Shown here piece after piece: positions 5,740 through 58,358 of a stretch of DNA of 64,000 nucleotides. The stretch covers positions 1,504,001-1,568,000 of the forward strand of contig OZ219753.1 in the NCBI GenBank assembly GCA_964291315.2. Direction: 5' to 3'. The notes below the pieces were generated by a model. The model made no database searches. It saw only the letters and a program-made list of their open reading frames with translations, and was not told where the DNA came from. This DNA is from Candidatus Poribacteria bacterium (GTDB lineage: Bacteria; Poribacteria; WGA-4E; WGA-3G). Each line of letters opens with the position of its first letter. Positions within the stretch are counted from its first letter, which is position 1. Both the position numbers and the translations under genes were made by a program.

Positions 5740-5782
5740 GGGACTACCTCCTGCCTCTACTATCATATTAACTTATATGATG

Positions 5783-5811
5783 AAGTATATCACACAGAGA
5801 CCTAGATATCA
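5783..5811 (-). promoter_or_regulatory. sigma70-like promoter of the Uma2 gene
   Basis: TTGATA-17 nt-TATACT with extended TG; TCATAT-N6-ATATGA inverted repeat just downstream. Confidence 0.55.
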
Positions 5812-5877
5812 AACGGATTCTAAGCTGGGCCTTCGAGCGGTGTTTCTCTCGACTCGTGGTTTGTATAACAGGGGCCC

Positions 5878-11402: not shown

Positions 11403-11506
11403 ATGTTCACCTGTGTTTATAAAGTGATTACGTCGCTAACCCTGTTTTCAAACTCACGTTATAATAACTATAGAAAATAGTTTATTAGAACCGGTGGTAA
11501 ACGTTG

Positions 11507-11734
11507 TTAGCGTTCAAGTTTTATGTGGTGACAATCAAATTCAACGAGTCTAATCACGCCGGGTTCGTTGTCGTACACCACACCGATGGAAGCGATAGTT
11601 TCTCCGGATCCTAAGAGACTCTCGAATTCGGAGATGTCACGGATTTCGCCATGATTTCCATCCACTGTGATCCTGTCCCCAACTTTCCAGTCTTTCACCT
11701 GTTGAAAGGGGATGTAATTTGCTGTATGATCCAT
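11507..11734 (-). CDS. Small hypothetical protein (75 aa, SH3/KOW/Tudor-like beta pattern)
   Basis: GGAGG RBS just upstream; co-oriented between helicase and methylase; WKVGDRITVDG..GEI. Confidence 0.6.
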   Translation of the reverse strand: MDHTANYIPFQQVKDWKVGDRITVDGNHGEIRDISEFESLLGSGETIASIGVVYDNEPGVIRLVEFDCHHIKLER

Positions 11735-11767
11735 TCGTTGGTCCTCCGTGCACAGAAAGAGCCGGAA

Positions 11768-14700
11768 CTACACGGCTTCCCCGTTTTTAACTATCTCTGA
11801 AAGCGGCACTTGATACCGAACCTCTGTGACCTGCTGAGCCCTTACCTCATTCGCCGGATCTTTGATAATATGGAGCTCGGGGTGTGTCGAGGCATTGAGT
11901 ACGACGTATAGAAAATAGTCGTCCTTGATTTGCTTTGCTTTAAACCACTCATTAGAGGTAAGAACGACGGGGGCGCGCTCTGATCGTGCCTTGACTTCGA
12001 TGCATCGGATTTTCCCATCGGGCGTTTTTGAACGTAGATCGAAACCGAGGTTTTCTGACGATACATCGTCAACAGTGCGCCCTTGCGCCTCTTCGTGACG
12101 GGTGGCGTATGCCATACCAAGCTGTTCAATCTCCAATCTATTGTGCGCGGGTGTTTCTACGCCCTCAGCAGCGGGCCGGACCCGAACTGCCCCGGCGAAA
12201 GTAGGCGGTTTTCTGGACAGCCTTACCTCTTGCTGGCAGGCGGTTTCCAATTTCGCTTTCTCCCGTTCATAATGCTCTTTCTGGTGTCGTTTGTTCTGCG
12301 TAACCAGTCTCACATCTTCGCCTCTTTCGGATCGCACCCCAAGTTCAAGCAATTCACCATCTAGTTTAATGATGAGTTTCTCCAGCGAGGCGATGCCGTA
12401 TTTTTTCTTAATATCTACCTGCCTTTCCCGTTCTTTTGTGAGTTCTTGTTTGTATTGATCCAAGTGGAGACGTGATGTTTCACCAATTTTGGCTTCCAAG
12501 GTTTTTATCTCGATCGGTTCTGCTGTGGCATCTGCATCTGCTTCTTGGAGGTCCCAGAGGACCACGGGGTTGATCGGTTCCACAGCTTCAGAGTTCTCGG
12601 GCAGATAAAAGGCGAACAATTGTCTGCCGACAACTGTATCTGTGCCATCTTGAATTTCACCTTCATAGAACACAATAATCCCATTGAGTTTGGCATCCGG
12701 GTCTTCAAAACAGGCACCGGCTTTAAGGTCTTGGGCGTATTCTTGCTCCACATAGCGAAGGGTTGCTTCAAAAAGTGGATGCCCAAAAGAGATAAACTCA
12801 ACCGATGAATCTTGGGCTGCATGGGCCTTATCAAACGTCACTTTTGCGTAATTTTTCCTAAGGGTACTGCCCGGATGCATCTGTCGGAATTCGTCGTCTT
12901 GAATAGTTCTGGTAATTTGACTCGGGATACGAGGAATACTAAAACTTTTATCTCTACGTTGGTGGAGTTCTATGTCATGGAGGTTTAAGGTTTTACGGAA
13001 GAACTCACGTGTGTATTCCGGAATGAGTCCTTGTTCACGAGCTTCTTGCTGAAGTTTACTCACCTGTGGCAGGTTAATATAGTGTGAAACGAGCGTATCT
13101 TCGTTAAATTTCTGGAAACGTTTAAGTTGAGATGAGTTAAACGGGGCTTCAAATTCTTTAAGTAGTTGGTTGTGGTCGCGCGTGCTTGCGGCGGCCTCTA
13201 GCAGGAGCTGTGCGAGATTTTGCTTCGGGAAAAGTTCACCGATGACATCGTAGACGCTATCCTTTCCTAGTTCGTTTCGAATGGTATCCAGCTTCTCAAA
13301 AAGGCGGGTAAAAACCGCACCTTCCCGCGTGTCGGAGGCGACAAGGTTGATAACATGTGCCTCCTTTTTCTGTCCGTAGCGGTGAATTCTACCCATTCGC
13401 TGCTCCAGCCGATTCGGGTTCCACGGTAAATCGTAGTTAATCATTAGGTGACAGAATTGAAGGTTAATGCCTTCGCCTGCGGCCTCTGTCGCGATGAGAA
13501 TCTGTGTTTCGTTTTGGAACGTTTGCTGTGCCTCTACCCGCTTTTCATGCGGCATTTTTCCATCAATGACAGATACCGAAAAACCCCACTCCTTCACTTT
13601 CTGCTGCAAGTAGTTTAACGTATCGAAGTACTCGGTAAAGATGAGGATCTTTTGATTCGGATGTTGAACATTGAGCTCATCAAGTGCTTCTTTGAGAGCT
13701 TGTAATTTAATTTCCCCTTTGTTTTGAATAATACTTTCGGCTTTTTGCTCAAGGTGTTTAAGGGTTTGAATTTCATTCGCCAACTCTTCCCTATTTTCAG
13801 CGACGGAGAGCACCTCCCACTGTTCTTCGAGCTCCCAACGCTCGACCTCACTGAGGTCTTCTATGTCGTCTCGCTGTGCCTCGGTGGGGATAGTATCGGC
13901 CTCGGGCGTAGTGTTGTCAAGTAATACCTGCAGCCGTTTTTGTCGACGTTGGAGAGAAACATGGAGGGCGCGGGTGCTAGATGCAAGCCGCCGTTGCAAG
14001 ATAACGAGAGCAAATGCGACATTGTTCCGTTTCTGTGAGTTTTCGGAGAATCGGTTGTATTGCTCACGAATGTACTCAGAAAGCTCGTTATAGAGCTCCA
14101 TCTCGCTTTCGGATTCGCTGCCGAGATGGAACGTTTTTGTTTGAACATGGCGCGGTAAGAAGAGAGCTTTTCCTTCAAAGTCTTTTAGGTCTTCCTTGAC
14201 GCGGCGAATCAGGAGCGGGTTATCCTTCTTTTGAATGGATTCCTCAATTTGAGCGGGCTCCGCGAAAAAACCGGGTTCAAGCAGGTCGAGGAAGAGGCGG
14301 AAATTCTCAGAGTCGCCCCGATGCGGGGTAGCCGTGAGGAATAGAAGGTGCGTTGTACAGCGAGAGAGGCATTCCCCCAGTTGATACCGCTTGGTCTTCT
14401 CAACCTTGTCACCATATTGGTAGGCAGCCATTTTGTGTGCCTCATCCACAATAATTAGATCAAAGTGGGTATGAGCGATAGCCCCGCGAATATCGTCCTG
14501 ACGCGCAAAATCTATAGAGGTTATCAACTGCTGCTCGCGCTGCCAGACGTTTTCAGACGCATGCGCATTAACAAAAGCACGGGTGACATGCGTGAAATTC
14601 TCTTCAAATCGCGTCTTCATCTCTTCTGTCCATTGCGTGATTAAGTGTCCCGGGGCAACAATAAGGATACGTTTCGCCTGGTTGCGGAGCTTTAGCTCTT

Positions 14701-15121
14701 TTGCGATCAGGCCCGCCATAATTGTTTTACCTGCTCCTGGGTCATCCGCGATCAGGAAGCGAATCCGCGGTTGCTTGAGTACTTGCCATACGGCTTCAAT
14801 CTGGTGCGGCAACGGATCGACCTTAGAGATGCTAATCGCAAAGGTCGGGTTGTAGAGTGCAGCGTACTGATAACGTTTTGCTTCGAGGTGAAGAAACGCG
14901 CGCCGCGCATTGCCGATAAAATTTAGTTGTGATTGAACAATTTGCAGCGTCTCCGCCTCCGCCGGGGTGAGCTCTTGGTTGATTGGCTGTTTGGAATTGA
15001 TCAACGTTCCGACAATATGTATGTCCCCGTTGGATCTTGGTTGATAGGCGTGAACATGAACGGGCTCGGGCCACAAGGAAGAAGATTCAACGATTGAGTC
15101 GTAGGTAATATTTTGTCTCAT
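11768..15121 (-). CDS. SNF2-family helicase with C-terminal DUF3883 (PD-(D/E)XK) nuclease domain
   Basis: [49 protein letters not shown]; C-terminal GFDLRS..IEVK. Start is 15121 (ATGA overlap with copA stop) or 15133. Confidence 0.9.
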
Positions 15122-17343
15122 AATTTCCGCCATTGTAGGCGTAGGCTATTTAGCACAACAGATACGCTGCTAAATGCCATAGCGAATGCTGCCAGCATCG
15201 GGTGAAGCTCCCGTAGCATAGCCGGCACGAAAGAGAGCGGGTACAGCGCGCCGGCCGCGATAGGAATTAAAAGGACGTTGTAGAAAAAGGCCCAGAAAAG
15301 GTTCTGTTTGATCGTTTGCATCGTGGCGCGGCTCAGCCGGATTGCCTCGGGAAGTGCACGCAAATCGCTGTGCATCAGCGTCACATGTGCCGTCTCCCGG
15401 GCAATATCAGTGCCTGTGCCGAGCGCTATCCCGATATCGGCTTGTGCCAATGCGGGGGTGTCATTGATACCATCGCCTACCATCGCGACGCTGCTTCTGT
15501 TTTCTGTTTGTAAAGTTTTAACGGCGTGCGCTTTGTCCTCAGGCAGGAGCTCCGCCCTGACATCGCTAATCCCCGCGGCTGCTGCAATCGCATGCGCGGT
15601 GCTGCGATTATCGCCTGTCATCATTATAACTTCACACCCGAGTTTATGGAGGTCAGCGACGGTCGCTTGTGCTTCGGGCCGCAAAGTATCTGCAACCGCG
15701 AGGAGCCCCTTAATCTGTCCATCAACCGCAACCCACAAGACCGTTTTTGCCTCGGTTTGTAGACGTTCCGCCTCTGTTTCAAACATTCGAGTCCGGATGT
15801 TGTGTTGTTGAATCAGAGACAGGTTGCCAATCACGACCCTGTTTTCACCCACTTGTGCGGTGATACCGTGTCCTGTGACTGCTTCAAACGCGCGGGGCGT
15901 AACGATGTTCAGTCCGCGTTCTTCGGCTGCTCGAACAACCGCTCTGCCAATCGGATGTTCACTGCCCCGCTCGGCGGCTGCTGCTAATTCGAGGAGTTCT
16001 GATTCGGCTTCGTCCGTGAGAATGTCCGTGAGCCTGAGTTTACCTTCTGTCAAGGTACCTGTTTTATCAAGGACGACAGTGGTTAAGGCTCCTGCGCGTT
16101 CAAGCGCCTCACCGTTTCGGAAGAGGATGCCGCGTTCTGCCCCGATGCCGGTTCCCATCATAATGGCAGTCGGCGTAGCAAGTCCCAGGGCGCAGGGGCA
16201 AGCGGAGACGAGAATGGCAACGAGGCGGAGCATTGCTGGGGTAAACCCTTCTCCGATCAGAAACCACCACACCAGAAACGTCAAAACCGCAATTCCGCTA
16301 ACGACAGGTACAAATACATTTGTAACTGCATCGGCGGCGCGTTGAATAGGAGGCTTGCTCTGTTGTGTTGTTTGTACCAATTGGACGAGGCGAGCGAGGG
16401 CTGTTTCAGTGCCGACATGTGTGGCTTCTATGGTGAGCATGCCGCTCTGGTTCATCGTCGCCGCGGTCACAGGATCCCCTGAGGTTTTGTCTACAGGTAG
16501 GCTTTCTCCGGTAAAGACGCTTTCATCGATGGCACTTTTACCACTGCACACCACGCCATCCACTGGAATGCTCTCGCCGGGACGTACAAGAAGGACATCT
16601 CCTACAACAACTTGTTCAATAGGAATGTGCTGTTCTTTGCCGTTATTTAAGCGACAAGCGGTCTTCGGGAAAAGTTTCGGGAGTTTTTTGAGGGCTGCGT
16701 TTATGTTTCCTTTGGCGCGCGCTTCAATCAGTTTCCCTAACTTAATCAATGTAATGATAACGGCGGCTGTCTCGAAGTAAACGTGGGTTCCCAAGCGCGT
16801 TCCGGTGTCTATGCCCAAAGCAATGGTTACAGCGAGACTATAAAGAAATGCCACGGAGGTGCCCATCGCAACAAGCACGTCCATGTTCGCGGATCGGTTA
16901 CGGAGTGCTTTAATACCGCCAACGTAGTAATCCCACCCGACATAGCCCTGCACCGGCAATGCTAAACCAAACATGAGCCAGTTAACCCATTGTGCCTGTG
17001 CCCAGTTTCCAAGCATCCCCATATCTCGCCCCATGCTGAGCAGAAAAAGGGGGAGGGTGAAGATGGCCCCGAGGGTGAATAGTTTTTTTTGTCGCTGGAA
17101 GTCTTCCGCGCGCGCTGCGTCTTCTGTTCCTTCATCGACAACGTCAAAGCCGAGGTCTCGGATCTTATCCACAACAGCGGCCTCATTGAGGATGTCCGTA
17201 TCGAAGGTGACGGCTGCATATTCGGTGGCGAGGCTGACTTCTGCGGCCAGGATGCCTTTCATCTTCTTGAGATGACGGGTGATAGTGGTTGAACAGTTCT
17301 CACAGTGCATTCCTGTGATGGGGAGGTTCACTTGACGTTCCAT
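15118..17343 (-). CDS. copA: Copper-translocating P1B-type ATPase
   Basis: HMA motif GMHCENC, TGES, CPC, DKTGT, SEHP, GDGIND, YN and MAFSS copper ligands. Confidence 0.9.
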
Positions 17344-32124: not shown

Positions 32125-33429
32125 TTAGATAGGTCCTTTCGCCCTGATGCCCTGCTCCTCGAGAATGGTAATAAACTCGGATTGCGAACGTGTACTTTTT
32201 GTTGAGTTACATGCGTTGCAGAGGAGCTGCAGGTTTTCTGTTTTATCTGTTCCGCCTTTAGATTGTGGCATAATGTGGTCTATTGTCATATTGCGGAGCG
32301 GGAAAAAATAGTGGCATCCTGCACATTTCCCCTCTTGTTTTCCGTAGAGTTCATGTTTATAGGTGTGTGCTTTGGGTAGCTGCATTTGGGCAGCGGCATC
32401 TATTAAATCGGTACGTTGAGGAGGGCAGGTTCGGACGTTAATATCTTCCAGAGGGTTCCACAGGTTAGTCTGTTTATCGACTTCTTCTTGTAGTCTAATT
32501 TTAGTGATAATTTCTGCGGATGGGGAGATATCTATGCCGATCCACTGCCTGCCACGTTGTTCTGCCGCAACGCAAGTCGTTGCACATCCACAAAATGGAT
32601 CAAGAACAATACCGTTCTTGTTGCTAGAGGCTTCGATGATACGATGTAAAAGGGCGAGTGGTTTTTGGGTAGGCCACCCGGTGCGTTCATCATCTTTGCC
32701 CTGCATCGTTAATTCTTTTTCTGTCCATAGGTTGCCGATTGCAACACCTGGGTGGGTGTCCAAGTAGACCCTCTTTACAATACCTTGCCGGTATTTTCTA
32801 CCACGCGGAATTGCGTAACGCCGTCCTTTTTGATCTACATGTCTATATTCCGATGTGATGGTTTGTTCTGACAACGGGCGAAAAACAGGATTGAAATTAT
32901 ATGCCTTGTCCATAGTGTAAAAGAGCAATATATCAGTTTCGGTGGTGAATTTACGTTTAGCAGTGTTCTTGTGCCCACCGTATTTTCGCCACACAATTTC
33001 ATTGCGAAAGTTCTGTTTCCCGAACAAACTATCCATCACAAGTTTCAAATAATGGGAGGCGGTGGGATCGCAGTGTAAGTAAATGGAACCTGTGGATTTC
33101 AATATCCGTTTCATTTCAAACAGCCGCACTGCCATCGCCATGAGGTATATCTTCATAGATCTGTCGTAGACTGCTTCAGACGCTTGAACGATTTGATAGA
33201 GTGCTTCGTTGTCTTCTGCGATTTCGCCATGCCATTCATATTCGATGTCTTCGTCTGTCCAGATATCTTTGAAAGATGCACCTTCTGCGGGCGAACCAAT
33301 GGAGGCTTTGTATTGCTTTTTGGAGTTAAATGGTGGATCGAGGTATATCAAGTCAATGCAATCGGAGTTGATACCGCGTAGGATATCGAGATTATCGGCG
33401 ATGAAAAGGGTTCGGTTCTTGATGTTCAT
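32125..33429 (-). CDS. Beta-class (N6/N4) DNA methyltransferase fused to a C-terminal HNH endonuclease
   Basis: IYLDPPFNS, HCDPTASHYLK, PTQKP, LDPFCGCATT; C-terminal CAGC..DHIMP..GG..NLQLLC..CN; start 33429 or GTG 33453. Confidence 0.88.
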   Translation of the reverse strand: MNIKNRTLFIADNLDILRGINSDCIDLIYLDPPFNSKKQYKASIGSPAEGASFKDIWTDEDIEYEWHGEIAEDNEALYQIVQASEAVYDRSMKIYLMAMAVRLFEMKRILKSTGSIYLHCDPTASHYLKLVMDSLFGKQNFRNEIVWRKYGGHKNTAKRKFTTETDILLFYTMDKAYNFNPVFRPLSEQTITSEYRHVDQKGRRYAIPRGRKYRQGIVKRVYLDTHPGVAIGNLWTEKELTMQGKDDERTGWPTQKPLALLHRIIEASSNKNGIVLDPFCGCATTCVAAEQRGRQWIGIDISPSAEIITKIRLQEEVDKQTNLWNPLEDINVRTCPPQRTDLIDAAAQMQLPKAHTYKHELYGKQEGKCAGCHYFFPLRNMTIDHIMPQSKGGTDKTENLQLLCNACNSTKSTRSQSEFITILEEQGIRAKGPI

Positions 33430-33609
33430 TGGTCTATTTGGTTTGCTTCCCACCTTGTTCCATCTTTGACCTCGTTATTAAAACGGTGTTCACCTGAATA
33501 CGCAGCATAAACCCTATCTAAAATTTAGGTTACGAAATAGCACCGCGCAAATGAACCCTACAGTGGGGGCAGAAAGCCGAAAACCTAAAATTTCAGAGTG
33601 CTACGCCCG

Positions 33610-36504: not shown

Positions 36505-39500
36505 ATGCAAAAATTTAGTCTCAAATCCACCCACAAGTCGATCCGCGACTATTATGCCACGCTGCAGGCATACAACCAGCACGACATCAGACATGAAGGC
36601 GCGGTGAGCTCTTCCTTCGAGGCACTCCTGCACGCCTGCGCGAAGCAGATGAAAGCGACGCTCATCCCGCAATATCAGATGCACGCCCCCAACGGAAACC
36701 GCATCGTTATTGACGGCGCAATCTTGGATGAATATAGCCTGCCGCTCGCCTACTGGGAGGCAAAAGATATTGATGACGATCTCACGAAGGCTGTTGAAGA
36801 AAAACGCGCGGCGGGGTATCCGCTAGACAACATCGTGTTCCAGAACCCACAGCGTGCGATTGTCTATCAGAACGGACGGGTCGCCTTAGACAGCGATAGC
36901 CGCAAGGCTGCAGGACTGATCGCCGCTCTTGAATGTCTGTTCGCTTATCTTCCGCCGGCATTGGAAAATTGGCAGTCGGCTGTAAAAGACTTCAAAGAAC
37001 ATGTGCCGGCCCTGGCAAGCGAGTTGAAAGAGCTCATTGAGCAGCGACACGCGGTGGATACGGCATTCCAAACGGCGTTCGCTAACTTCTATGAGACCTG
37101 CCGCACGACGATCAACCCCGAGCTCTCACAGGAGGCGGTTGAGGAGATGCTGATCCAACACATCCTCACCGAACGGATCTTCCGAACGGTTTTCAACCGC
37201 TCCGACTTTACGAGCCGGAACATTATCGCTGTTGAGATAGAGAATGTGAGTAGTGCGCTGATGCGGCAGGCGATGAGTCGAGATGTGTTTCTGGCGCCCT
37301 TAGATCGTTTCTATATCGCTATTGAACAGGCAGCACTATTCTGCAAAGACTTCTCACAGAAGCAGAGCTTCCTCAACAGCTTCTATGAGAAGTTTTTTCA
37401 AGGGTTCTCGGAGGATGTAGCGGACACACACGGCATTGTCTATACACCGCAGCCGATCGTGAATTTCATGGTCAACAGCGTGCAACATCTATTAGAGACC
37501 GAGTTTGATCGTTCGCTGTCGGACACGGGCGTGCATATCATAGACCCGTTTGTCGGCACGGGCAACTTCATCGTCCGACTGATGCAGGACATCCAAGGCA
37601 CGGCACTCGAGGCGAAATACCGCGAGGAGCTGCACTGTAACGAAGTGATGCTGTTGCCCTACTACATTGCTAGCCTGAACATCGAGCAGGAATACTTCCG
37701 TCGGACTGGTGCGTATCTGCCGTTTGAGGGGATCGTGCTGGCGGATACATTTGAGCTGCTTGAACAAGAGCAGGGACAGCTCTTCACGCGTGAAAACACG
37801 GAGCGGGTGCAGGAGCAGAAGGCGGCGGACATGTTCGTGGTGATCGGCAATCCCCCCTACAACGCCGGGCAGGTCAATGAGAACGACAACAACAAGAACC
37901 GGAAGTATCCACTTATGAACGCGCGGGTTGCGGAGACGTATGTGAAAGACTCCACAGCCACGTTGCGGAATAAACTCTACGATCCGTATGTGAAGGCGAT
38001 CCGCTGGGCATCGGATAGAATTGGAGAGGAAGGCGTTGTGGCTCTGATAACAAATAACAGTTTTCTCGACGGGATTGGGTTTGACGGTATGCGAAATCAC
38101 CTTGCGAAAGATTTCCATGCAATCTATGCTCTCGACTTAGGCGGAAATGCCCGGAAGGGATTAAAGGTCTCTCATGCGAATGTGTTCGGCATTCGGGTAG
38201 GGGTGAGTATCAACCTATTCGTGAAAAACAGAGAGCGTTCATCAGGGCAACCGTGCATCTATTACTATCGCACGGATGAGATGTGGAATAGAGAGCAGAA
38301 GTTCGAGTTCCTGAATAAATGCCGGCATGTGGGCGGGGTTGCGTGGCAGCCGGTTGCACCCGACGCGCGCCACACATGGCTCACGACAGGGCTCCGTCCC
38401 GAATTTGAGACCTTTCTTCCGATGGGCACCAAGGTAGCAAAGGCAAAAAGAGGGGCTGCAACAGAAGTACTTTTCAAAACCTATAGCAACGGCGTGAAGA
38501 CGAATCGTGATGCATGGACTTACAATTTTAACCGAAACGCACTCGTTGAAAATATAAGTCGGATGATTGAGACTTACAACGCAGAAGTGGCGCGCTGGAC
38601 ACAACGGAGAAATAGAGAGGTGCCCGTTGATAATTTTGTGGTATATGACGATACAAAAATCAAGTGGAGTCGGGATTTAAAAGCGAAATTGAAACGAGGA
38701 ACAGTTGCCAAATATGCGGATCACAAGGTGAGGACCTCCCTCTATCGCCCTTTTACGAAATCCAACCTCTACTTCGACCGAACTATGAACGATGTCGTAT
38801 CCCTATTTCCATCTATCTTCCCTACCCTAGAGACTGAATCAGAAAATCGGGTCATTTGTGTCAACGTGACGCTAGAAAAACCCTTTACTTGTTTGATGAC
38901 TGCTTGTATTCCTGATTTTGTAGTAACGGGCGGGTTTGGATCACCAACTCAAAGTTTCCCCTTCTACACCTATGACGAAGACGGCACAAACCGCCGCGAA
39001 AATATCACCGACTGGGCATTGACAGAATTCCGCTCTCACTACAAAGACGATAGCATTAGCAAGTGGGACATCTTCCACTATGCCTATGGGCTCCTGCACC
39101 ATCCCGACTACCGAGAGAAATATGAGGCGAACTTGAAGCGCGATCTGCCGCATATCCCCTTCGCCACAGACTTCTGGGCGTTCGCTACCGCAGGCGTAAA
39201 GCTCGCAGAGCTCCACGTCAATTACGAAACCGCACAGCAGTTCCCGTTGAAATACAGAGAAACGCCCGACACGCCGATAGACTGGCGCGTGGAGAAGATG
39301 AAGTTGTCTAAAGACAAAACACAGTTGAAATATAACGAGTTCTTGACGTTAGACGGCATCCCAGCGGAGGTGTTTGCATATCGGTTAGGCACTCGTTCAG
39401 CGTTGGAATGGGTGATAGATCAGTATCGTGTGAAGACGCACAAGCGGAGCCGGTTGGTTACCGATCCGAATTGTGCGGATGCGCCGCGGTATATTGTGGA

Positions 39501-39570
39501 TTTAGTGGCGCGGGTTATCACTGTCAGTCTAAAGACGGTGGAGATTGTTAAGAATTTGCCGGAACTTTAA
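36505..39570 (+). CDS. Type IIG/ISP-like restriction-modification fusion (nuclease + gamma-class N6 MTase + specificity domain, no helicase)
   Basis: N-terminal IDG..YWEAK, GIVYTP, IDPFVGTGNF, VIGNPPY, GVKTNRD, YRPF, C-terminal LG.RSALEWVIDQY. Confidence 0.85.
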   Translation: MQKFSLKSTHKSIRDYYATLQAYNQHDIRHEGAVSSSFEALLHACAKQMKATLIPQYQMHAPNGNRIVIDGAILDEYSLPLAYWEAKDIDDDLTKAVEEKRAAGYPLDNIVFQNPQRAIVYQNGRVALDSDSRKAAGLIAALECLFAYLPPALENWQSAVKDFKEHVPALASELKELIEQRHAVDTAFQTAFANFYETCRTTINPELSQEAVEEMLIQHILTERIFRTVFNRSDFTSRNIIAVEIENVSSALMRQAMSRDVFLAPLDRFYIAIEQAALFCKDFSQKQSFLNSFYEKFFQGFSEDVADTHGIVYTPQPIVNFMVNSVQHLLETEFDRSLSDTGVHIIDPFVGTGNFIVRLMQDIQGTALEAKYREELHCNEVMLLPYYIASLNIEQEYFRRTGAYLPFEGIVLADTFELLEQEQGQLFTRENTERVQEQKAADMFVVIGNPPYNAGQVNENDNNKNRKYPLMNARVAETYVKDSTATLRNKLYDPYVKAIRWASDRIGEEGVVALITNNSFLDGIGFDGMRNHLAKDFHAIYALDLGGNARKGLKVSHANVFGIRVGVSINLFVKNRERSSGQPCIYYYRTDEMWNREQKFEFLNKCRHVGGVAWQPVAPDARHTWLTTGLRPEFETFLPMGTKVAKAKRGAATEVLFKTYSNGVKTNRDAWTYNFNRNALVENISRMIETYNAEVARWTQRRNREVPVDNFVVYDDTKIKWSRDLKAKLKRGTVAKYADHKVRTSLYRPFTKSNLYFDRTMNDVVSLFPSIFPTLETESENRVICVNVTLEKPFTCLMTACIPDFVVTGGFGSPTQSFPFYTYDEDGTNRRENITDWALTEFRSHYKDDSISKWDIFHYAYGLLHHPDYREKYEANLKRDLPHIPFATDFWAFATAGVKLAELHVNYETAQQFPLKYRETPDTPIDWRVEKMKLSKDKTQLKYNEFLTLDGIPAEVFAYRLGTRSALEWVIDQYRVKTHKRSRLVTDPNCADAPRYIVDLVARVITVSLKTVEIVKNLPEL

Positions 39571-46881: not shown

Positions 46882-47949
46882 CTACGAACGTAGTAGAGGC
46901 CTCTCTGTGTCCGTACAATGCCGCTCCATTTTATGAACTTCTTGGATGTTTGTCGGGTATCCGTGTATTTGGTAGTCTTTTGAGGGTTGCAGTCCGTGCC
47001 TGTCAGCGAGTCTGCGGCGTGTTGTGTCAAGTGAGAGCAGTGTAAGATCAATCCCTATCCAGGGCCGGTTGAGGGTGTGTGCTGCATCTATTGTGGTGCC
47101 ACAACCGACAAAAGGGTCCATAACGAGATCGCCTTCATTGCTCGAGGCTTGTATCATGCGTTCGTAAAGGATAATAGGTTTCTGTGTCGCATAGCCGAGA
47201 CGTTCTTTAGAGGTTCTGCCGACCATATCCACTTCCCAAACATCGCGCATAGATGCCATCGTGTACCAACGGCCTTCTTTATCTTGAAATTCGTTAATAC
47301 CTTCAAAACGATAAGGCTTGAAGTTCCGATTGTATGACTTTTCCTTCTGAATATTAAAGGTATGTCTGTTCCTAAAATTTCGGGTGTAGAAGAGAATTAC
47401 ATCGTGCTTACGCGCAAACCAATTTTTGCTGATGCCCCCTGAGCGGTATGACCATACAATCTCATTCCGAAAGTGCTCATTTTTCTTTCGATTGTTCTGA
47501 TCCCAAATTGCGTCCATTATGCCTTTAAGGTAGTGGCTTGCGGTGGGATCGCAGTGTAGGTAAATACTGCCGGTCTCTTTGAGGAGCCGGTGCATCTCTG
47601 CGAGGCGCGGCCCCATAAACGCGAGGTATGCTCGCATCGCGCCCTTGTTGCCCGATACTGCGTTTTGTAGCACAAGATCATAGCCTTTGAGGCAGACATC
47701 CAGTGCTTTGTAGGTGTCGCTGGTGCGTGCCATTCTTTCAATGTCAGTGCGTGTGTCTTGTGCCGGGGTGTCCCAGGTCCAAGTGTCTGTAAATGCTTTA
47801 GCTTGTGCCTTGGAATCAGTAAGGAATGCATTGTAATCACGCCCGCTGTTGAAGGGCGGATCGGTACATATTAGGTCGACGTGCTGGTCGTCCATTTCTT
47901 GCATGACTTCAAGGTTGTCACCGAAGTATAGACTGTTCGGTAGGATCAT
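46882..47949 (-). CDS. Beta-class DNA methyltransferase, copy 2 (no nuclease domain)
   Basis: TDPPFNS, HCDPTASHYLK, ATQKP, MDPFVGCGTT; 355 aa from ATG 47949. Confidence 0.88.
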   Translation of the reverse strand: MILPNSLYFGDNLEVMQEMDDQHVDLICTDPPFNSGRDYNAFLTDSKAQAKAFTDTWTWDTPAQDTRTDIERMARTSDTYKALDVCLKGYDLVLQNAVSGNKGAMRAYLAFMGPRLAEMHRLLKETGSIYLHCDPTASHYLKGIMDAIWDQNNRKKNEHFRNEIVWSYRSGGISKNWFARKHDVILFYTRNFRNRHTFNIQKEKSYNRNFKPYRFEGINEFQDKEGRWYTMASMRDVWEVDMVGRTSKERLGYATQKPIILYERMIQASSNEGDLVMDPFVGCGTTIDAAHTLNRPWIGIDLTLLSLDTTRRRLADRHGLQPSKDYQIHGYPTNIQEVHKMERHCTDTERPLLRS

Positions 47950-49482
47950 TTTTCTCTCTATTAGTATGATATTTACGAGCGCATTAGAGTCATCTGTGTG
48001 TCCGTAAAGTGCCGTTCTACCTTTCGCATCGGGGCAATCCACGCGGCAGGTAAACGGATAATGTCCTTCAAGGAGCTCGGATTTTCAAAATAGGTGTCGT
48101 CTATTTGCCAGAATTGCAGGCGCGGAAATGTTTCATTGTTGTGATAAAACGTTCCCATATCAGCTGCAACCTGACGCATGCCGGCACTAACAGGTGTAAT
48201 TGTGATAAATACACCGATTGCATCGTTTTTGTTCATCACATGACAGAAGGCGCGGACTTGTGAGATCGTCGGTTTCCCGCTTTTGACTTCAGCAAGGATA
48301 CGTGTATGGGTCGTCTGCCCTTCTTCTGGGTCCCAGAGCGTGATATGTCCGACGTTTGCCTCACCATCTTTCCCACCGTCTCCCACAGATTTCGTCGGTT
48401 GAAGTCCGAGGCGTGTGACTGCCCAGTTAGAGAAGTCGTGATATTTCTTTTCATCTCGGACGAGTTTATGAACTTCTTGGATGTTTGTCGGGTATCCGTG
48501 TATTTGGTAGTCTTTTGAGGGTTGCAGTCCGTGCCTGTCAGCGAGTCTGCGGCGCATAGGGTCAAGTGATAGAAGTGTGAGATCGATCCCTATCCAGGGC
48601 CGGTTGAGGGTGTGCGCTGCATCTATTGTGGTGCCGCACCCGGCGAAGGGATCCATGACGAGATCGCCTTCGTTGCTTGAGGCTTGTATCATGCGTTCGT
48701 AAAGTGCCCGCGGCTTTTGCGTCGGATAGTCGAGCCGTTCTTTTGCCATGGAATTCAGTGAGGGGATGTCTTTCCACCAATCGTTAGGGATCATTCCTTC
48801 GTCAGGGTAGTAATATCTTTTTTTCCCCGCATCAACACGGATCCGACACTTCCTGCCTTGATTATCTACCTGCCGATAATGGCTTGCCAGATATTCTTCA
48901 CTAATAGGCATTTTGTAACTTCCCCAAAATGCTTTGTCAGTTTTCGTATAAAGCAAAAGAGTGTCGTGTTTTTTGGAAAAGAAACGTTTAGGGCGACCAC
49001 TGTTAGAGTATCCCCAAGCAATCTCATTTCTATAATTCTCTATATCAAAAATTGCGTCCATTACGCCTTTAAGGTAGTGGCTTGCGGTGGGATCGCAGTG
49101 TAGGTAAATACTGCCGGTCTCTTTGAGGAGCCGGTGCATCTCTGCGAGGCGCGGCCCCATAAACGCGAGGTATGCTCGCATCGCGCCTTTGTTGCCCGAT
49201 ACTGCGTTTTGTAACACAAGGTCGTAACCCTTGAGGCAGACATCCAATGCTTTGTAGGTGTCGCTGGTGCGCGCCATTCTTTCAATGTCAGTGCGCGTGT
49301 CTTGTGCCGGGGTGTCCCAGGTCCAAGTGTCTGTAAATGCTTTAGCTTGTGCCTTGGAATCAGTAAGGAATGCATTGTAATCACGCCCGCTGTTGAAGGG
49401 CGGATCGGTACATATTAGGTCGACGTGCTGGTCGTCCATTTCTTGCATGACTTCAAGGTTATCACCGAAGTATAGACTGTTC
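46930..49482. repeat. Two pairs of direct repeats from the MTase duplication
   Basis: 47505-47938 vs 49049-49482 (434 bp, about 11 mismatches by eye); 46930-47208 vs 48465-48743 (highly similar). Confidence 0.92.
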
Positions 49483-49484
49483 AT
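47973..49484 (-). CDS. Beta-class DNA methyltransferase fused to an Mrr-like restriction endonuclease, copy 1
   Basis: TDPPFNS, PTQKP, MDPFAGCGTT; C-terminal GDGGKDG..AEVKSG..GVFIT. Confidence 0.88.
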   Translation of the reverse strand: MNSLYFGDNLEVMQEMDDQHVDLICTDPPFNSGRDYNAFLTDSKAQAKAFTDTWTWDTPAQDTRTDIERMARTSDTYKALDVCLKGYDLVLQNAVSGNKGAMRAYLAFMGPRLAEMHRLLKETGSIYLHCDPTASHYLKGVMDAIFDIENYRNEIAWGYSNSGRPKRFFSKKHDTLLLYTKTDKAFWGSYKMPISEEYLASHYRQVDNQGRKCRIRVDAGKKRYYYPDEGMIPNDWWKDIPSLNSMAKERLDYPTQKPRALYERMIQASSNEGDLVMDPFAGCGTTIDAAHTLNRPWIGIDLTLLSLDPMRRRLADRHGLQPSKDYQIHGYPTNIQEVHKLVRDEKKYHDFSNWAVTRLGLQPTKSVGDGGKDGEANVGHITLWDPEEGQTTHTRILAEVKSGKPTISQVRAFCHVMNKNDAIGVFITITPVSAGMRQVAADMGTFYHNNETFPRLQFWQIDDTYFENPSSLKDIIRLPAAWIAPMRKVERHFTDTQMTLMRS

Positions 49485-52982: not shown

Positions 52983-55310
52983 CTATCGAGAGCGTCCTTT
53001 AGGGATACGTGGCGAGCGCCGGTTGCGAAAATCCCGCACATTGTCGCGTTGTTCATAACGGTTGGTGCGCCGGTCACGTGTATCGCTGCCCCGTCTTTCT
53101 CGGGAGTCACGTGTGTCTCTACTATCACGGTAACCCGAGCGGCCCATATCCCGGTTTCCCCTCGGTTCATGCCGATCAGATGAGAAATCACGATCATCGG
53201 ACGATTCAATATTCATTTCTTCAACGGGGATTCCACCTGCCGCGATCAGTGTCAAATCTACACGATCCTGTTCGTCAATTGTGAGGATACGGACAGTGAC
53301 TTCGTCACCCACCTGCATCACGTCCTCGGCGCGGCGGACATAACCGTCCCCCATTTGCGAAATATGAACGAGGCCGTCCTTGCCGGGCAAAATCTCTACG
53401 AATGCTCCAAACGGAGCCGTTCGGACTACTTTTCCGGTGTACTCTTTCCCAATTTCAGGCATTGCCGTGATCGCTAGGATTTTTTCCTCGGCTCGTTTGA
53501 GATCCTCAGCACTTGTTGCTGCAATTTCAACAGTTCCATCATCTTCAATGCTGATAGTTGTGTTGGTTTCTTCTTGGAGTCCTTGGACAGTCTTGCCTCG
53601 TGGTCCAATGAGGTCTTTAATTTTCTGTTGTGCGATCTGGATCGAGTGAATCCGCGGGGCATAAGGGGAAAGTTCTGCACGCGGTTGTGCTATAACGGCA
53701 TTCATCTGTTCAATGACTGCAAGCCGCGCTTCTTTTGCTTGATGGATTGCGCGACGCATCAATTCTGGACTGACCCCTTCAATCTTGATATCCATTTGGA
53801 CAGCAGTAACGCCTTCGCTGGTCCCCGCCACTTTAAAATCCATGTCACCCAAGAAGTCTTCCGTTCCGAGCATATCGGTGAGTATAACCTCTTGTTCGTT
53901 TTCCTTGATGAGTCCAACGCCTATTCCCGCGACAGGTCCTTTAAGGGGGACACCAGCATCCAACAACGCTAATGTCGCGCCACAGACGGTCGCCATTGAC
54001 GAGGAGGCGTTAGATTCCAAGATTTCCGATACGACCCGAATTGTATAGTGGAATTCTTCCTTAGCTGGAATAACTGGTTCGAGAGCCTTTTGTGCCAAGG
54101 CCCCGTGACCGATTTCCCGGCGTCCAGGCCCCATCATGCGTTTGACTTCACCCGTGCTGAACGGTGGGAAGTTGTAGTGGAGAAAGAACGAACGTCTCAC
54201 TTCACCATCAAGTCCGCGTTGGACATCTTCGTCGCCAGACGTGCCGAGAGTCGTTACACAGAGTGCCTGTGTCTGGCCCCTACTAAAGAGCGCTGATCCA
54301 TGGGTGTAGGGCAAGAGTGCAACTTCGCCCGAGATAGAACGAATATCCGTTACGCCGCGCCCGTCAACCCGTTTGCCTTCGGTCAGAATGGCTTGGCGCA
54401 TCTCCTCTTTTTCGATTTCGTTTAAGATGGAAACAGTGTCCTTTGCTGCGTTCAGGTCGGTTTCCTCAGGTATATCTTCAAGGATTTCTGACAAAACCTC
54501 TTCTTGGACCTGTTCAAGATAGTCTTCACGCAATTTTTTGTCTGCCATTCCGATAGATTCTCGGATCCGAGATGTGGCGAGATTGCGAACGCGGTTGCTG
54601 AGGTCTACTCCAACATTTTTGGACGTATAATTGCGCTTTGGCGTACTGCAGACTGCCGCTAGTCCTTCTTGAAGTCTGATAATCTCCTTTATTTGCGCGT
54701 GAGCGGTGACAATTGTATCAATAACTTCATCTTCGGGGATTTCGTGACCGCTACCTTCAACAGACATCACGGCATCTATCTTACCGCTTACGAACAATTC
54801 CATCTCCGAAGCGTGTAATTCTTCATAGTTTGGATTGATTATTAACTCGTCTTCAATTTTCCCTACTGTGACTGCTGCAACCGGGCCGTTAAACGGGATA
54901 TCAGAAATCGATAAAGCGGCCGAGGTGCCGATGAGTGCCGGAACATCCGCCGGATGAATACCGTCCGATGAAAACACGTTGCATAAAATTTGTACTTCTG
55001 CCTTAAAGTCCTTGGGAAAGAGAGGACGGATACAGTGATCAATTAAACGAGCAATAAGTTGTTCGGATGTTCCAGGACGTGGCTCGCGTCTACCATAAAC
55101 CGTCGGGATACGTCCTGTCGCGTATGCCCTCTCACGATAATCTACTGTTAGTGGAAAGAAATCCAAGTCGTGTTCCCTATCGTCCGCTACGACTGTAACT
55201 AAGACAATCGTTCCACCGTATTGAACCCACACCGCTCCATCTGCTTGTTTCGCGACTTTTCCGGTTTCGATCGATAACTTCTCGTTTCCCAGTTGCATTT
55301 CAACTTTCAT
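52983..55310 (-). CDS. pnp: Polyribonucleotide nucleotidyltransferase
   Basis: ETGKVAKQADG, DFFPLTVDY, RGQTQAL, RREIGHG, GDMDFKVAGT, KH and S1 domains; start ATG 55310 or TTG 55355. Confidence 0.97.
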   Translation of the reverse strand: MKVEMQLGNEKLSIETGKVAKQADGAVWVQYGGTIVLVTVVADDREHDLDFFPLTVDYRERAYATGRIPTVYGRREPRPGTSEQLIARLIDHCIRPLFPKDFKAEVQILCNVFSSDGIHPADVPALIGTSAALSISDIPFNGPVAAVTVGKIEDELIINPNYEELHASEMELFVSGKIDAVMSVEGSGHEIPEDEVIDTIVTAHAQIKEIIRLQEGLAAVCSTPKRNYTSKNVGVDLSNRVRNLATSRIRESIGMADKKLREDYLEQVQEEVLSEILEDIPEETDLNAAKDTVSILNEIEKEEMRQAILTEGKRVDGRGVTDIRSISGEVALLPYTHGSALFSRGQTQALCVTTLGTSGDEDVQRGLDGEVRRSFFLHYNFPPFSTGEVKRMMGPGRREIGHGALAQKALEPVIPAKEEFHYTIRVVSEILESNASSSMATVCGATLALLDAGVPLKGPVAGIGVGLIKENEQEVILTDMLGTEDFLGDMDFKVAGTSEGVTAVQMDIKIEGVSPELMRRAIHQAKEARLAVIEQMNAVIAQPRAELSPYAPRIHSIQIAQQKIKDLIGPRGKTVQGLQEETNTTISIEDDGTVEIAATSAEDLKRAEEKILAITAMPEIGKEYTGKVVRTAPFGAFVEILPGKDGLVHISQMGDGYVRRAEDVMQVGDEVTVRILTIDEQDRVDLTLIAAGGIPVEEMNIESSDDRDFSSDRHEPRGNRDMGRSGYRDSRDTRDSRERRGSDTRDRRTNRYEQRDNVRDFRNRRSPRIPKGRSR

Positions 55311-55527
55311 TCTATGTACTACTCCTGTATTTCCGATTTTTCGTGCTTCTACCAAATATAAATAATAAAAAAGCGGCTAGAGAAAAATATTGCTTAAGAT
55401 ATAGTATACCGGATTGACACGGCTAATAGTAGTCTTTAAGCGTTACAACCTACAACCCTAATCGGATTTAAACCCGGTTGTTGAGATATAAAATGCGTTT
55501 CGTAACCGCTCTGTACTAGCGCAAAAC

Positions 55528-55818
55528 CTAACTTCTTCTTGATCCGATTGTGTCACGAATTCCAAGTCCTTCAATTAAACGGTAGTAGCGCGGAACGTCT
55601 TTTTTATAAAGATACTTTAACAAACGGCGCTGTTTTCCAACAAGGCGGAAAAGCCCATAGCGAGAATGGTAATCCTTCCGATGCGTCCGAAAATGTTCGG
55701 TCAACTGTCGAATCCGAGCCGTCAAAATTGCCACCTGAGCCTCCGGAGACCCAGTATCCTGTTGATGTACCTGGTACTGTTCCAATAATTCCTTCTTCTC
55801 TGCTGCACTAATTGCCAA
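55528..55818 (-). CDS. rpsO: 30S ribosomal protein S15
   Basis: [19 protein letters not shown]...H.KD.HSR.GL; AGGAGGTG RBS, TTG start. Confidence 0.97.
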
Positions 55819-56002
55819 TTGTGCTCACCTCCTTTTGGTTGAACAACTGGTTTTAAATAACAGGCCTTGGATACCTGTTCATTGCGTCTCGTCAAAAATC
55901 ATCGGCTAAAACGGACGTTATAAAACAAAAATGCTTTGACACATATATGAATATAAAAAAAAACTAAGTTGTTTGCGATTGTTGCTCCGATATTCATCTA
56001 TT

Positions 56003-56172
56003 CATCTACGCATGATACATATTTGACATACTCCGCCATCGTGTAAACCTACGAGATTCCTCTGAAAGTGGATCCCCTTGCTTTTTGATGTGAATTGTGG
56101 CGTTCCGATTTCGGAAACGGCCTAGTCTGTCACAACGGACATATAAAAACCGCCGGGGATCTCTTCCTATGG
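56003..56172 (-). ncRNA. Candidate structured ncRNA (omegaRNA-like or long rpsO leader)
   Basis: Downstream of a perfect promoter; long hairpin GATCCCC..GGGGATC; ends GGAATCTC..GGAGTATGTCAA; no ORF. Confidence 0.4.
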
Positions 56173-56178
56173 AAGTTT

Positions 56179-56207
56179 ATTATACCACATTTCCCCGCAA
56201 TTGTCAA
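56179..56207 (-). promoter_or_regulatory. Perfect consensus sigma70 promoter
   Basis: TTGACA-17 nt-TATAAT with extended -10 TG. Confidence 0.85.
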
Positions 56208-56349
56208 TTTTATTTATTGGACACAACTGATTAACCGCCACGACATCCCTGACAAAAAGGTATGACGATTTGTAGCTGAAGATTTGATAATACTACAAGT
56301 TGGCCTGAAATTCAAATTAAACTCTTGTGTTTAAATGGTTTAGGTACTG

Positions 56350-57330
56350 CTATTGGCGTGCAGATTCGGCAAGTATCTCTGCGGCTGTCTTGACATCGCG
56401 TCGTATCTGTTGCACAAGGGATTGAAGATTCGGGAATTTTCGTTCATTCCTAATTTTTTCTACGAAAAAGATTTCTACCAATTTACCATAGATGCTCTCA
56501 TTAAAATCAAAAAAGTAACCTTCTACTTGGAAATTTAACTCGCTAAACGTAGGGCGTGTTCCAATGTTCAAGACACCGTCTAACCATTTCCCTTCTAGTT
56601 TAGCGCGGATTGCGTAGACACCATTCGGAGGATAGATTTGGTCGTGTGTCTCTATATTTGCTGTGGGGAAACCGAGCTCCTTACCTCTTCCATCACCGTG
56701 GACAACCTTTCCGATCAACGAGTACGGACGCCCCAATAATTGTGAGCTCCACAAGAGGTCTCCGCTCGCTAAGGCTTGACGAATGCGGGTACTATGAACC
56801 GGCGAACCGTTTATCTCTGTAGGCGGGACAATCGTGACATCAAAGGGGTAATCCTCACTGATTTCTGCTAAGCGTTGTGCATTACCAGCTCGGTTTTTTC
56901 CAAATTGACAAGCATATCCCACGACAACATGTTTGGTTCGACATTTCTCCAGGAGAACACGTTCCACGAAAGCCTCTGGTGGCATTGAGGCAATCTTTTC
57001 GTCAAAACTGAGCATAACAATTTTGTTAATGCCACATTGCTGAAGTATCTCAACGCGTTTAGAAAGCGGGGTCAGAATAGGCGGGCATCGTTCCGGCGAT
57101 AAAAACGCGAGTGGATGCGGGTAGAAACCAACCAGCACGCTCATCAATTGCTCTTCTGCGGCACGATGCAACAGCGTCTTAATGACCGCTTGATGCCCTA
57201 GATGGATTCCATCAAATACACCGAAGGTAACCACGGTGTCTCTCTCAAATCCGGGGATGTCCTCTGAATTATAAATTGTTGTCGCTATGGAGGGGTTGCT
57301 TATATTGGCAACGTTTTCCACGTTTTTCAA
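56350..57330 (-). CDS. ribF: Bifunctional riboflavin kinase/FAD synthetase
   Basis: GVFDGIHLGHQ, STRIR, G.GRGKELGFPTAN, NIGTRPT, IR.ERKF. Confidence 0.95.
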   Translation of the reverse strand: MKNVENVANISNPSIATTIYNSEDIPGFERDTVVTFGVFDGIHLGHQAVIKTLLHRAAEEQLMSVLVGFYPHPLAFLSPERCPPILTPLSKRVEILQQCGINKIVMLSFDEKIASMPPEAFVERVLLEKCRTKHVVVGYACQFGKNRAGNAQRLAEISEDYPFDVTIVPPTEINGSPVHSTRIRQALASGDLLWSSQLLGRPYSLIGKVVHGDGRGKELGFPTANIETHDQIYPPNGVYAIRAKLEGKWLDGVLNIGTRPTFSELNFQVEGYFFDFNESIYGKLVEIFFVEKIRNERKFPNLQSLVQQIRRDVKTAAEILAESARQ

Positions 57331-58358
57331 TCCTTCAGAAAGTCACCACACCTCTTGGAAGGCTGTTTCATGTACTGCTGTGTAGTGTGAACAAGAGCAG
57401 TAATCGCTGATAAATAAGGCATCATGACTCGGCAGCCTGCCGCACGTCGATGTCCACCACCTTCAAATTCTGAAGCCAGTTTGCTAACATCTACCTGGCC
57501 TTGGCTCCGTAAGCTCGCCTTAGTACTCCTATCTGGCAATTCGCACGCACACAGGGCTACTTCAACACCTGCAATTGCTTGAATCTGATTCACAGCCCCT
57601 TCTATAGCTTCAGACGTGGCCCCGGTCCTTCTGAACATCGCTTGCGTAACGTACACAGAGGCTATCTTACCGTCATTCGTGACTTGCAAGGTGCGGAGAA
57701 TTTCACTTAATAAACGAATTTTACTAACCGGTATATGTTCATAGACATGACGGTAGACTTCATCGGGCGCGAATTCACCTATCTCTATCAATTCTGCCGC
57801 AATGCGATGCGTGTCAGCTGTGGCGTTACTATAGCGAAAACAACCCGTGTCAAACATCAATCCTGTGTAGAGGCAGAGCGCGCAAGCTTTGCTTATTGCC
57901 GTCTGGTGATACTTGATCAGTGTGTATACAATTTCTGATGTAGAGGAGGCTGAGGGGTTGATGATATTAATATCTCCAAACGCTTCAGCTGTCGTGTGAT
58001 GGTCAATGTTAACCAGTATATTTATGGGTCGCAACGTTTCCGACAAGGTTTTACCGATCCGTTTCAGTGTACTTGCATCTAACACAATTAGAACTTCCGG
58101 ACGATAAGTTCCGACTGCACGAACATCCTCAATGCTATCCCACGATGGCAAAAATCTGTAGTTAACAGGGACAGTATCTGTGTTAAAAATTCTAACAGAT
58201 TTCCCTAACTGCTTTAGAAAGAGGTAGAGGCTCAGTTCCGAACCGATCGCGTCGCCATCTGGATTAATATGGGTTGAAAGGGCGAAGTTATCGTACCGCT
58301 CTAGTAGCGCGAGGAGTGTGCCATAGCTCTGCGTATCTGTTGTATGTTGGGTGCTCAT
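57327..58358 (-). CDS. nrnA: DHH family phosphoesterase (NrnA-like oligoribonuclease/pAp phosphatase)
   Basis: HINPDGDAIGS, NIDHH, DTGCFRY, SLRS, GGGH..AAG. Confidence 0.85.
   Translation of the reverse strand: MSTQHTTDTQSYGTLLALLERYDNFALSTHINPDGDAIGSELSLYLFLKQLGKSVRIFNTDTVPVNYRFLPSWDSIEDVRAVGTYRPEVLIVLDASTLKRIGKTLSETLRPINILVNIDHHTTAEAFGDINIINPSASSTSEIVYTLIKYHQTAISKACALCLYTGLMFDTGCFRYSNATADTHRIAAELIEIGEFAPDEVYRHVYEHIPVSKIRLLSEILRTLQVTNDGKIASVYVTQAMFRRTGATSEAIEGAVNQIQAIAGVEVALCACELPDRSTKASLRSQGQVDVSKLASEFEGGGHRRAAGCRVMMPYLSAITALVHTTQQYMKQPSKRCGDFLKD

Follow-up and report, generated by a model that had tools for sequence, protein, structure and literature searches.

In IS608 of Helicobacter pylori, as described in PMC3201880, the element is inserted 3' of the tetranucleotide TTAC and DNA is neither gained nor lost; the foot of the left palindrome follows 19 nt farther 3' of TTAC and is directly preceded by the four bases of the guide sequence, AAAG, and the right cleavage site is TCAA, with A-10 and G-9 engaged in base triples. 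Palindrome-associated transposable elements (PATEs) are defined in PMC3119063 by the lack of inverted ends, of a duplication and of a transposase and by the presence of near-terminal palindromes, and according to PMC10055086 they often encode omegaRNAs, to be used in trans by the TnpB of other elements. Further, TTAT has been given as the transposon-associated motif (TAM) of the ISDge10 TnpB (PMC13507860). Here, we describe a 264-bp element upstream of rpsO in a 64-kb stretch of a genome of Candidatus Poribacteria, a sponge symbiont; this whole stretch is referred to as the window. In an earlier reading of the same DNA (the original prediction), the region had been taken for an orphan omegaRNA-like RNA gene. 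The comparison with relatives indicated instead, by parsimony, that the 264 bp are an insertion in the lineage of the window, and we consider it, on balance, probable that this insertion is a decayed or non-autonomous (PATE-like) IS200/IS605-like element with an outward promoter that reads into rpsO-pnp.

Relatives were collected by scanning genome contigs with a RibF query, which yielded 28 loci, all from genomes other than that of the window. Candidatus Poribacteria accounted for 24 of them (23 loci from metagenome-assembled genomes plus WGA-3G), with RibF identities of 55-85%, and ribF was followed by rpsO in 23 of these 24. A promoter motif, TTGAAT-17-TAT(T/C)AT, was present in 22 of the 23 Poribacteria loci with the ribF-rpsO order, and in these 22 the -10 box was followed directly by ATA(T/C)GTAT... 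and by a leader of 158-198 nt (519 nt in L009). The ribF-rpsO spacer was approximately 530 nt long in the window, compared to approximately 240-290 nt in 21 of the 23 relatives; the spacer stretches extracted for the alignment measured 258-310 nt in the relatives (21 flanking bases included) and 556 nt in the window. Long spacers of unrelated DNA were present in the other two relatives, L009 and L026.

While TATTAT and ATATGTATCA are uninterrupted in the relatives, the window reads TATTAT, then 264 nt, then ATATGTATCA. The insertion point lies exactly between the native -10 box and the first base of the leader, and native bases were neither lost nor duplicated. The 264-bp element was not found in any of the 28 loci and was missing from all 21 aligned relatives. 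Because the promoter and the leader of the relatives abut without it, parsimony identifies the element as an insertion, and what had appeared to be an orphan RNA gene became a dated insertion event with exact borders. The features that define these borders are:

56023..56286, minus strand: lineage-specific 264-bp insertion, which starts with CAAATC and ends with GTATGTCAA, without target duplication or terminal inverted repeats (comparison with relatives).
56287..56315, minus strand: native rpsO promoter TTGAAT-17-TATTAT (score 9/12), which ends in TTAT (56290..56287), the tetranucleotide that flanks the insertion on its left and is its candidate target.
56003..56022, minus strand: first 20 nt of the native rpsO leader, ATATGTATCATGCGTAGATG, which the original prediction had put forward as a putative guide (alignment with relatives).

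A repeat search detected no terminal inverted repeats at 56023 and 56286. The boundary that had been placed between TCAA and the putative guide coincides exactly with the right edge of the scarless 264-bp insertion, as defined by the alignment with relatives. With up to three mismatches allowed, the 20-mer ATATGTATCATGCGTAGATG matched the window at one place only. A junction formed via a duplication of TA/AT or of TCAAAT was also considered and set aside as less simple, as it would need extra native indels, and there are no inverted ends.

The termini of the insertion were then compared with those of IS608, and the following features were located:

56241..56267, minus strand: left imperfect palindrome CGTCATACC-(9)-GGGATGTCG, with 7/9 pairs and T.T and A.G mismatches (DNA fold).
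56263..56286, minus strand: direct repeat CAAATCTTCA / CAAATCGTCA at the extreme left end, 14 nt from start to start (repeat search, family D1).
56023..56055, minus strand: right-end segment, with AGTATGTCAA as its last ten bases and TCAA at 56026..56023 (DNA fold z of +0.71).

The foot of the left palindrome, which is overlapped by the second copy of the direct repeat, is element position 20, and 19 nt separate this foot from the left boundary. The tetranucleotide AAAT (56271..56268) stands where IS608 has its guide sequence AAAG, and the last ten bases of the element carry A-10 and G-9. In line with the description of IS608 in PMC3201880, the window element shares with it the 19-nt spacing to a candidate left palindrome, the AAA of the guide, the TCAA end, A-10/G-9 and the scarless insertion. 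It differs in its flank, which is TTAT and not TTAC, in the fourth guide base, which is T where A would be expected, and in the lack of both tnpA/tnpB and a right palindrome whose end is 10 nt short of the cleavage point; the likeness claimed here is one of layout. With 264 nt, the element is too short for a transposase, and stop codons occur in all three sense frames.

The mechanism known from IS608 would give a scarless insertion 3' of TTAT, a TCAA end, A-10/G-9 and a 19-nt left spacing, which argues for an IS200/IS605 origin. The insertion signature and the left-end geometry of the family are present, and membership is unproven: the element was not filed as a proven member because the right palindrome, a defining feature, was looked for and not found. 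A gene-less IS200/IS605-type element would have landed, in this lineage only, directly after TTAT, the end of the native -10 box, and its right end may since have decayed. Compared with the PATEs of Haloquadratum (PMC3119063) and Geobacillus (PMC10055086), as these sources describe them, the element is alike in its candidate near-terminal palindrome, whose distance from the 5' end exceeds that usual at the 3' end, and resembles those that bear omegaRNAs in its predicted outward transcription through the right end. It differs from PATEs in that it has no recognisable right palindrome, is known from one copy, carries a full consensus promoter and sits inside the promoter of a ribosomal-protein gene.

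Two further features, both inside the insertion, bear on its possible effect on the host operon:

56179..56207, minus strand: consensus sigma-70 promoter TTGACA-17-TATAAT with an extended TG, pointing at rpsO (motif score 12/12).
56056..56172, minus strand: long irregular RNA hairpin directly 3' of the promoter, with its core at 56162..56066 (folding against shuffles).

Within the window, TTGACA-N17-TATAAT occurs exactly once, as the promoter at 56207..56179; when one mismatch was allowed, three matches were counted vs. 0.31 expected from 100 shuffles. Transcription is predicted to start near 56172. The helices of the hairpin are GAUCCCC/GGGGAUC, UUUUU/AAAAA, UUGUG/CACAA and an apical UCCG-aaau-CGGA, and its minimum-energy fold equals the centroid fold. 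Folding z-scores were -3.15 for 56162..56066 and -3.23 for 56172..56056, with 0/200 shuffles as stable in each case, and the hairpin remained a separate domain when folded within the 367-nt transcript up to rpsO. The entire 226-nt stretch was unremarkable (z of -0.62). The perfect promoter with its extended TG and the long hairpin, both reported in the original prediction, were thus recovered, as were the TCAA approximately 150 nt past the predicted start (56026..56023) and the T9 run downstream of it (55963..55955). The latter lies within the native rpsO leader, where relatives have GTTCTCAT or GTTTTTAT; as a terminator it was ruled out, since it has no preceding stem and belongs to the native leader. 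No minus-strand terminator was predicted between the 56207..56179 promoter and rpsO.

Based on these features, the promoter of the element is predicted to fire outward via the right end, and the transcript would begin with the 117-nt hairpin and the 33-nt right end and continue, as no terminator intervenes, through the native leader into rpsO-pnp. The native promoter may still fire through the element, because its hexamers stay intact. We infer an IS200/IS605 origin, promoter activity and read-through. Insertion sequences can supply outward-facing promoters to neighbouring host genes. The window element is like them in that a mobile element would place a strong promoter before a host operon, and differs in that it is gene-less and sits between the host -10 box and start site, with the host hexamers intact. 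If it is an IS200/IS605 derivative, it is a clear-cut natural case of such an element settling in a core ribosomal operon, with the -10 box on one side and the start site on the other; the insertion would be tolerated because the element brings its own strong promoter.

A TnpB-only element in one of the relatives allowed a closer comparison. Among the ORFs (open reading frames) of the relatives without a counterpart in the window, 9 of 22 were scanned with Pfam, and L018:10404-11567 was found to encode a TnpB of 387 aa (OrfB_IS605 2.8e-22; Cas12f1-like TNB 3.5e-20). This ORF belongs to an IS200/IS605-type element of approximately 1.45 kb (~10191-11637, borders within 1-2 nt) downstream of pnp, whose site is empty in L023, L012, L013 and L014. 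Its parts follow the order 19-20 nt, left palindrome, TTGACA-17-TTTAAT with TG, a 95-nt hairpin and tnpB. The left palindrome, CCCCATCC-TTTA-GGTTGGGG, matches the right one, CCCAACCC-TTTA-GGTTTGGG, and the hairpin, located in the 5' untranslated region (5'-UTR), has a z of -6.9 and a 3' foot that reaches the tnpB start codon. As the comparison shows, this phylum and this neighbourhood harbour active elements of the kind. The window element resembles the L018 element in these two respects and also in the order of its parts, namely 19-20 nt, an imperfect palindrome with a T.T mismatch, TTGACA-17-T(A/T)TAAT plus TG and a long hairpin; it differs in that the L018 element has matching left and right palindromes and a 387-aa TnpB, and in the lack of significant sequence similarity between the two.

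Several results weigh against an IS200/IS605 origin or leave it less secure. The left palindrome is only modestly unusual: 167/5000 shuffles were as good with a foot at +18 to +22 and 1152/5000 with a foot anywhere, and its DNA fold z was only -1.2. The AAAT in the position of the IS608 guide sequence would, by analogy with IS608, pair best with TTAA rather than with TTAT, the last pair being a T.T mismatch. The right-end palindrome was not beyond chance; the best hairpin had 4/9 pairs and ended 16 nt from the end, with 4641/5000 shuffles equal, in agreement with the original prediction, which had described the subterminal hairpin as weak. Only a single insertion is known (flank TTAT), which is insufficient to establish a target preference, and a 2-nt AT duplication may have occurred if the ancestral site had one AT repeat fewer. 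Apart from the promoters, for which 5/300 shuffles scored as well, no significant similarity was detected between the window element and the L018 element. Searches of the window and the 28 loci (~360 kb from relatives) with blastn (word size 7, E<=10) and nhmmer recovered nothing but the element itself, a plasmid search with the element gave no match, and the phage search returned four records sharing only a 23-nt promoter match at chance level (E 0.08). Finally, promoter activity and read-through are predictions.

Some of these observations would fit an origin outside the IS200/IS605 family, that is, an undescribed small mobile element, or a promoter with its 5' leader copied in from another place in the genome by illegitimate or site-specific recombination, the sole effect of which would be a new promoter for rpsO-pnp. 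We regard this as unlikely. It would agree with the missing right palindrome and the weak left one, with the presence of a single copy in all DNA examined (the window and the 28 loci) and with the lack of homology to any known element among plasmids, phages and L018. The word TCAAAT, which spans both junctions, and the resemblance of the right end, TATGTCAA, to the native TATGTATCAA hint at a more complex event. However, a scarless insertion with ends like those that PMC3201880 describes for IS608 is not expected from illegitimate recombination, and the junctions are without microhomology.

The same layout is also what a working stand-alone omegaRNA would show, in which a TnpB or a nuclease-dead TldR encoded elsewhere would use a scaffold of approximately 150 nt and the next 16-20 nt (ATATGTATCATGCG...) as a guide; once the element had been excised, such an RNA would direct cutting of the vacated site (TTAT plus flank), and the element would thereby be retained. 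As in the omegaRNA or right-end element RNA (reRNA) of ISDra2, ISDge10 and others, a scaffold of ~150 nt would reach the right end and be followed by flank as guide; the element has its own promoter ~150 nt from the right end and is predicted to be transcribed across it, and the TTAT flank is a known TAM (PMC13507860). PATEs with omegaRNAs served in trans are described in PMC10055086, and a TnpB is present in the phylum beside the same operon (L018). While the site is occupied, TCAA and not TTAT stands directly before the target, which implies that the RNA would not direct self-cutting and that only the vacated site would be cut, as in the homing model of PMC10055086. In contrast with known omegaRNAs, the window element has no protein partner in the window and no overlap with a tnpB frame, and its likeness to them is by layout only. 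The similarity to a tnpB 3' end implied by the original prediction was not borne out, as none was detected with the 3' end of the L018 TnpB element. The hairpin directly follows the promoter, like the 5'-UTR hairpin of L018, an analogy which suggests that it may correspond to the latter and not to an omegaRNA scaffold; the right end would then comprise ~33 nt, too little for a scaffold.

Coding remnants of a TnpB were not found either. A 51-aa open frame (56176..56024), RuvC-III-like by eye, was rejected as a tnpB remnant: Pfam gave 0 matches, the BLASTP match to the L018 TnpB had an E of 32 and lay away from the RuvC-III-like motif and the C-terminus, and phmmer against 1.84 billion representatives returned one match, P0001, a 582-aa tandem-repeat pseudo-protein. 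The score of P0001 is inflated by the repeats, as it adds up 12 weak stretches that contribute 1-8 bits apiece, and a single repeat unit scored 18.5 bits (E 180). Two antisense ORFs (56 aa and 45 aa) matched no Pfam family, and the 56-aa ORF had no homologue among proteins of 30-98 residues. In line with the absence of an adjacent tnpA or tnpB noted in the original prediction, neither gene was detected by Pfam among the 45 main ORFs of the window. With this evidence on both sides, we consider a working stand-alone omegaRNA unlikely. The guide RNA for TnpB/TldR that had been proposed is partly supported, by the right-edge boundary, by the TTAT flank as a known TAM and by the TnpB and IscB/IsrB-like elements of relatives; similarity to the L018 TnpB element, a tnpB remnant, a right palindrome beyond chance and a second copy in the window or the 28 loci were not found.

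Decidedly unlikely, in our view, is a combination of both roles, in which the insertion would be a selfish guide serviced in trans that doubles as a host promoter, that is, a gene-less IS200/IS605 mini-element that would have retained or gained its own consensus promoter and would make a guide RNA without a linked nuclease. Here, TnpB from elsewhere would re-cut the empty TTAT site after excision and so lock the element in the promoter of a ribosomal-protein operon, the transcription of which the element would in part have taken over. If it were shown to work, a promoter-equipped guide RNA without a linked nuclease would bear on the separation of guide and nuclease during domestication.

With its strong promoter and stable hairpin immediately 5' of rpsO, the element might also be taken for a conserved housekeeping or regulatory RNA (6S RNA, an S15 autoregulatory leader or a riboswitch). 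This is very improbable, as the element is missing from 21 of the 21 aligned relatives, whose leaders otherwise show base-by-base conservation that starts at the -10 box. In the Rfam check that the original prediction had suggested, no match to 6S, S15 leaders or any other family was obtained, either over the whole window at the gathering threshold or over 55750-56420 at E<=10. In a control search of L018, L002 and L017 at E<=1, Hrs13 was the sole match, below threshold, and no family was hit at the TnpB and RRXRR elements of these loci; because Rfam also misses the guide-RNA regions of these three loci, its silence says little about omegaRNAs.

Regulation of rpsO by a leader, the other possibility raised in the original prediction, would apply to the native sequence downstream of the insertion and not for the inserted element itself, which is missing from the aligned relatives. 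The native leader is located as follows:

55819..56022, minus strand: native rpsO leader, conserved; specific to the window are a longer T run and an 8-nt tandem duplication, GATGAATA x2 (alignment A2, RNAalifold, repeat family D3).

In alignment A2, 22 Poribacteria sequences share the leader, with conservation that begins immediately 3' of the -10 box. RNAalifold predicted a hairpin, AACAGG..CCTGTT (window ~55877-55857), the closing pair of which is AU in nine sequences and GC in nine; of 9 predicted pairs, 5 are changed on both sides. A single-sequence fold added a further stem, CCAGTTGT / ACAATTGG, that encloses the Shine-Dalgarno sequence and the TTG start. The native leader is a candidate S15 autoregulatory leader, without an Rfam match.

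PATEs, omegaRNA-bearing PATEs and promoter-donating insertion sequences have already been described; what is new here is an instance in an uncultured phylum and the notable site at rpsO. Among the papers listed by a literature search, none joins Poribacteria with TnpB, IS200 or IS605, which is not proof of absence. The relatives carry elements of the OMEGA type (obligate mobile element-guided activity; TnpB and IscB/IsrB-like) around the same operon, which is further evidence for their activity in uncultured sponge symbionts. Besides the TnpB of L018, Pfam identified an RRXRR domain, which we take to be associated with IscB/IsrB, in the ORFs L002:10404-11576 (390 aa) and L017:10725-11591; the approximate limits of the corresponding elements are L002:10337-11620 and L017:~10400-11591. 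Compared with L006, in which the site is empty, the L002 element separates the ribosome-binding site of the gene 3' of pnp from the ATG of that gene. It had no Rfam match. A host promoter, TTGCAT-17-TATAAT, would be expected to transcribe the flank and then the L002 element, as for an omegaRNA with a 5' guide.

Small elements seem to have landed upstream of rpsO more than once. A different insertion of ~320 nt, with inverted-repeat-like ends AAATATTTTCTACA ... TATAGAAATATTT, was observed near the rpsO ribosome-binding site in L009 (~7290-7540). In L026 (6904-7511), the ribF-rpsO spacer of ~600 nt is unrelated to that of other relatives, contains repeated CAATGAATTG(A/C)..ACTAC words and had no match to the conserved rpsO promoter motif.

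The operon as a whole lies on the minus strand of the window in the order rimP-nusA-infB-DUF503-rbfA-DHH/DHHA1 (NrnA-like)-ribF-rpsO-pnp, as assigned by Pfam among the 45 main ORFs. The genes closest to the insertion are:

57330..56350, minus strand: ribF (Pfam).
55528..55818, minus strand: rpsO, ribosomal protein S15, with a TTG start (Pfam Ribosomal_S15 5.2e-34).
55355..52983, minus strand: pnp, 3' of rpsO (Pfam PNPase domains).

The TTG start of rpsO was found in the window and in all 22 relatives examined. In many bacteria, truB occupies the position between rbfA and ribF. In the window, the DHH/DHHA1 (NrnA-like) gene sits there (57327-58358), and in L022 a truB gene was observed immediately upstream of ribF (5130-5864). 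The PNPase encoded by the window has an Arg/Asp/Ser-rich tail of ~80 residues C-terminal to its S1 domain (52983-53230, the 3' end of pnp).

Elsewhere in the window, restriction-modification genes split core operons. A gene for an N6_N4 methylase-HNH fusion (32125-33453) is located between nuoD and nuoE-like genes, a Type ISP restriction-modification enzyme (36505-39570) adjoins nuoA, and two DNA methylase genes lie between gcvT and gcvH (46882-49484). Further, a three-gene cluster on the minus strand (5878-15133), which encodes a helicase (SNF2/ResIII plus NOV_C), a DUF1156 methyltransferase-like protein and a DUF499 protein and has a Uma2 endonuclease-like gene adjacent to it, looks like a defence island.

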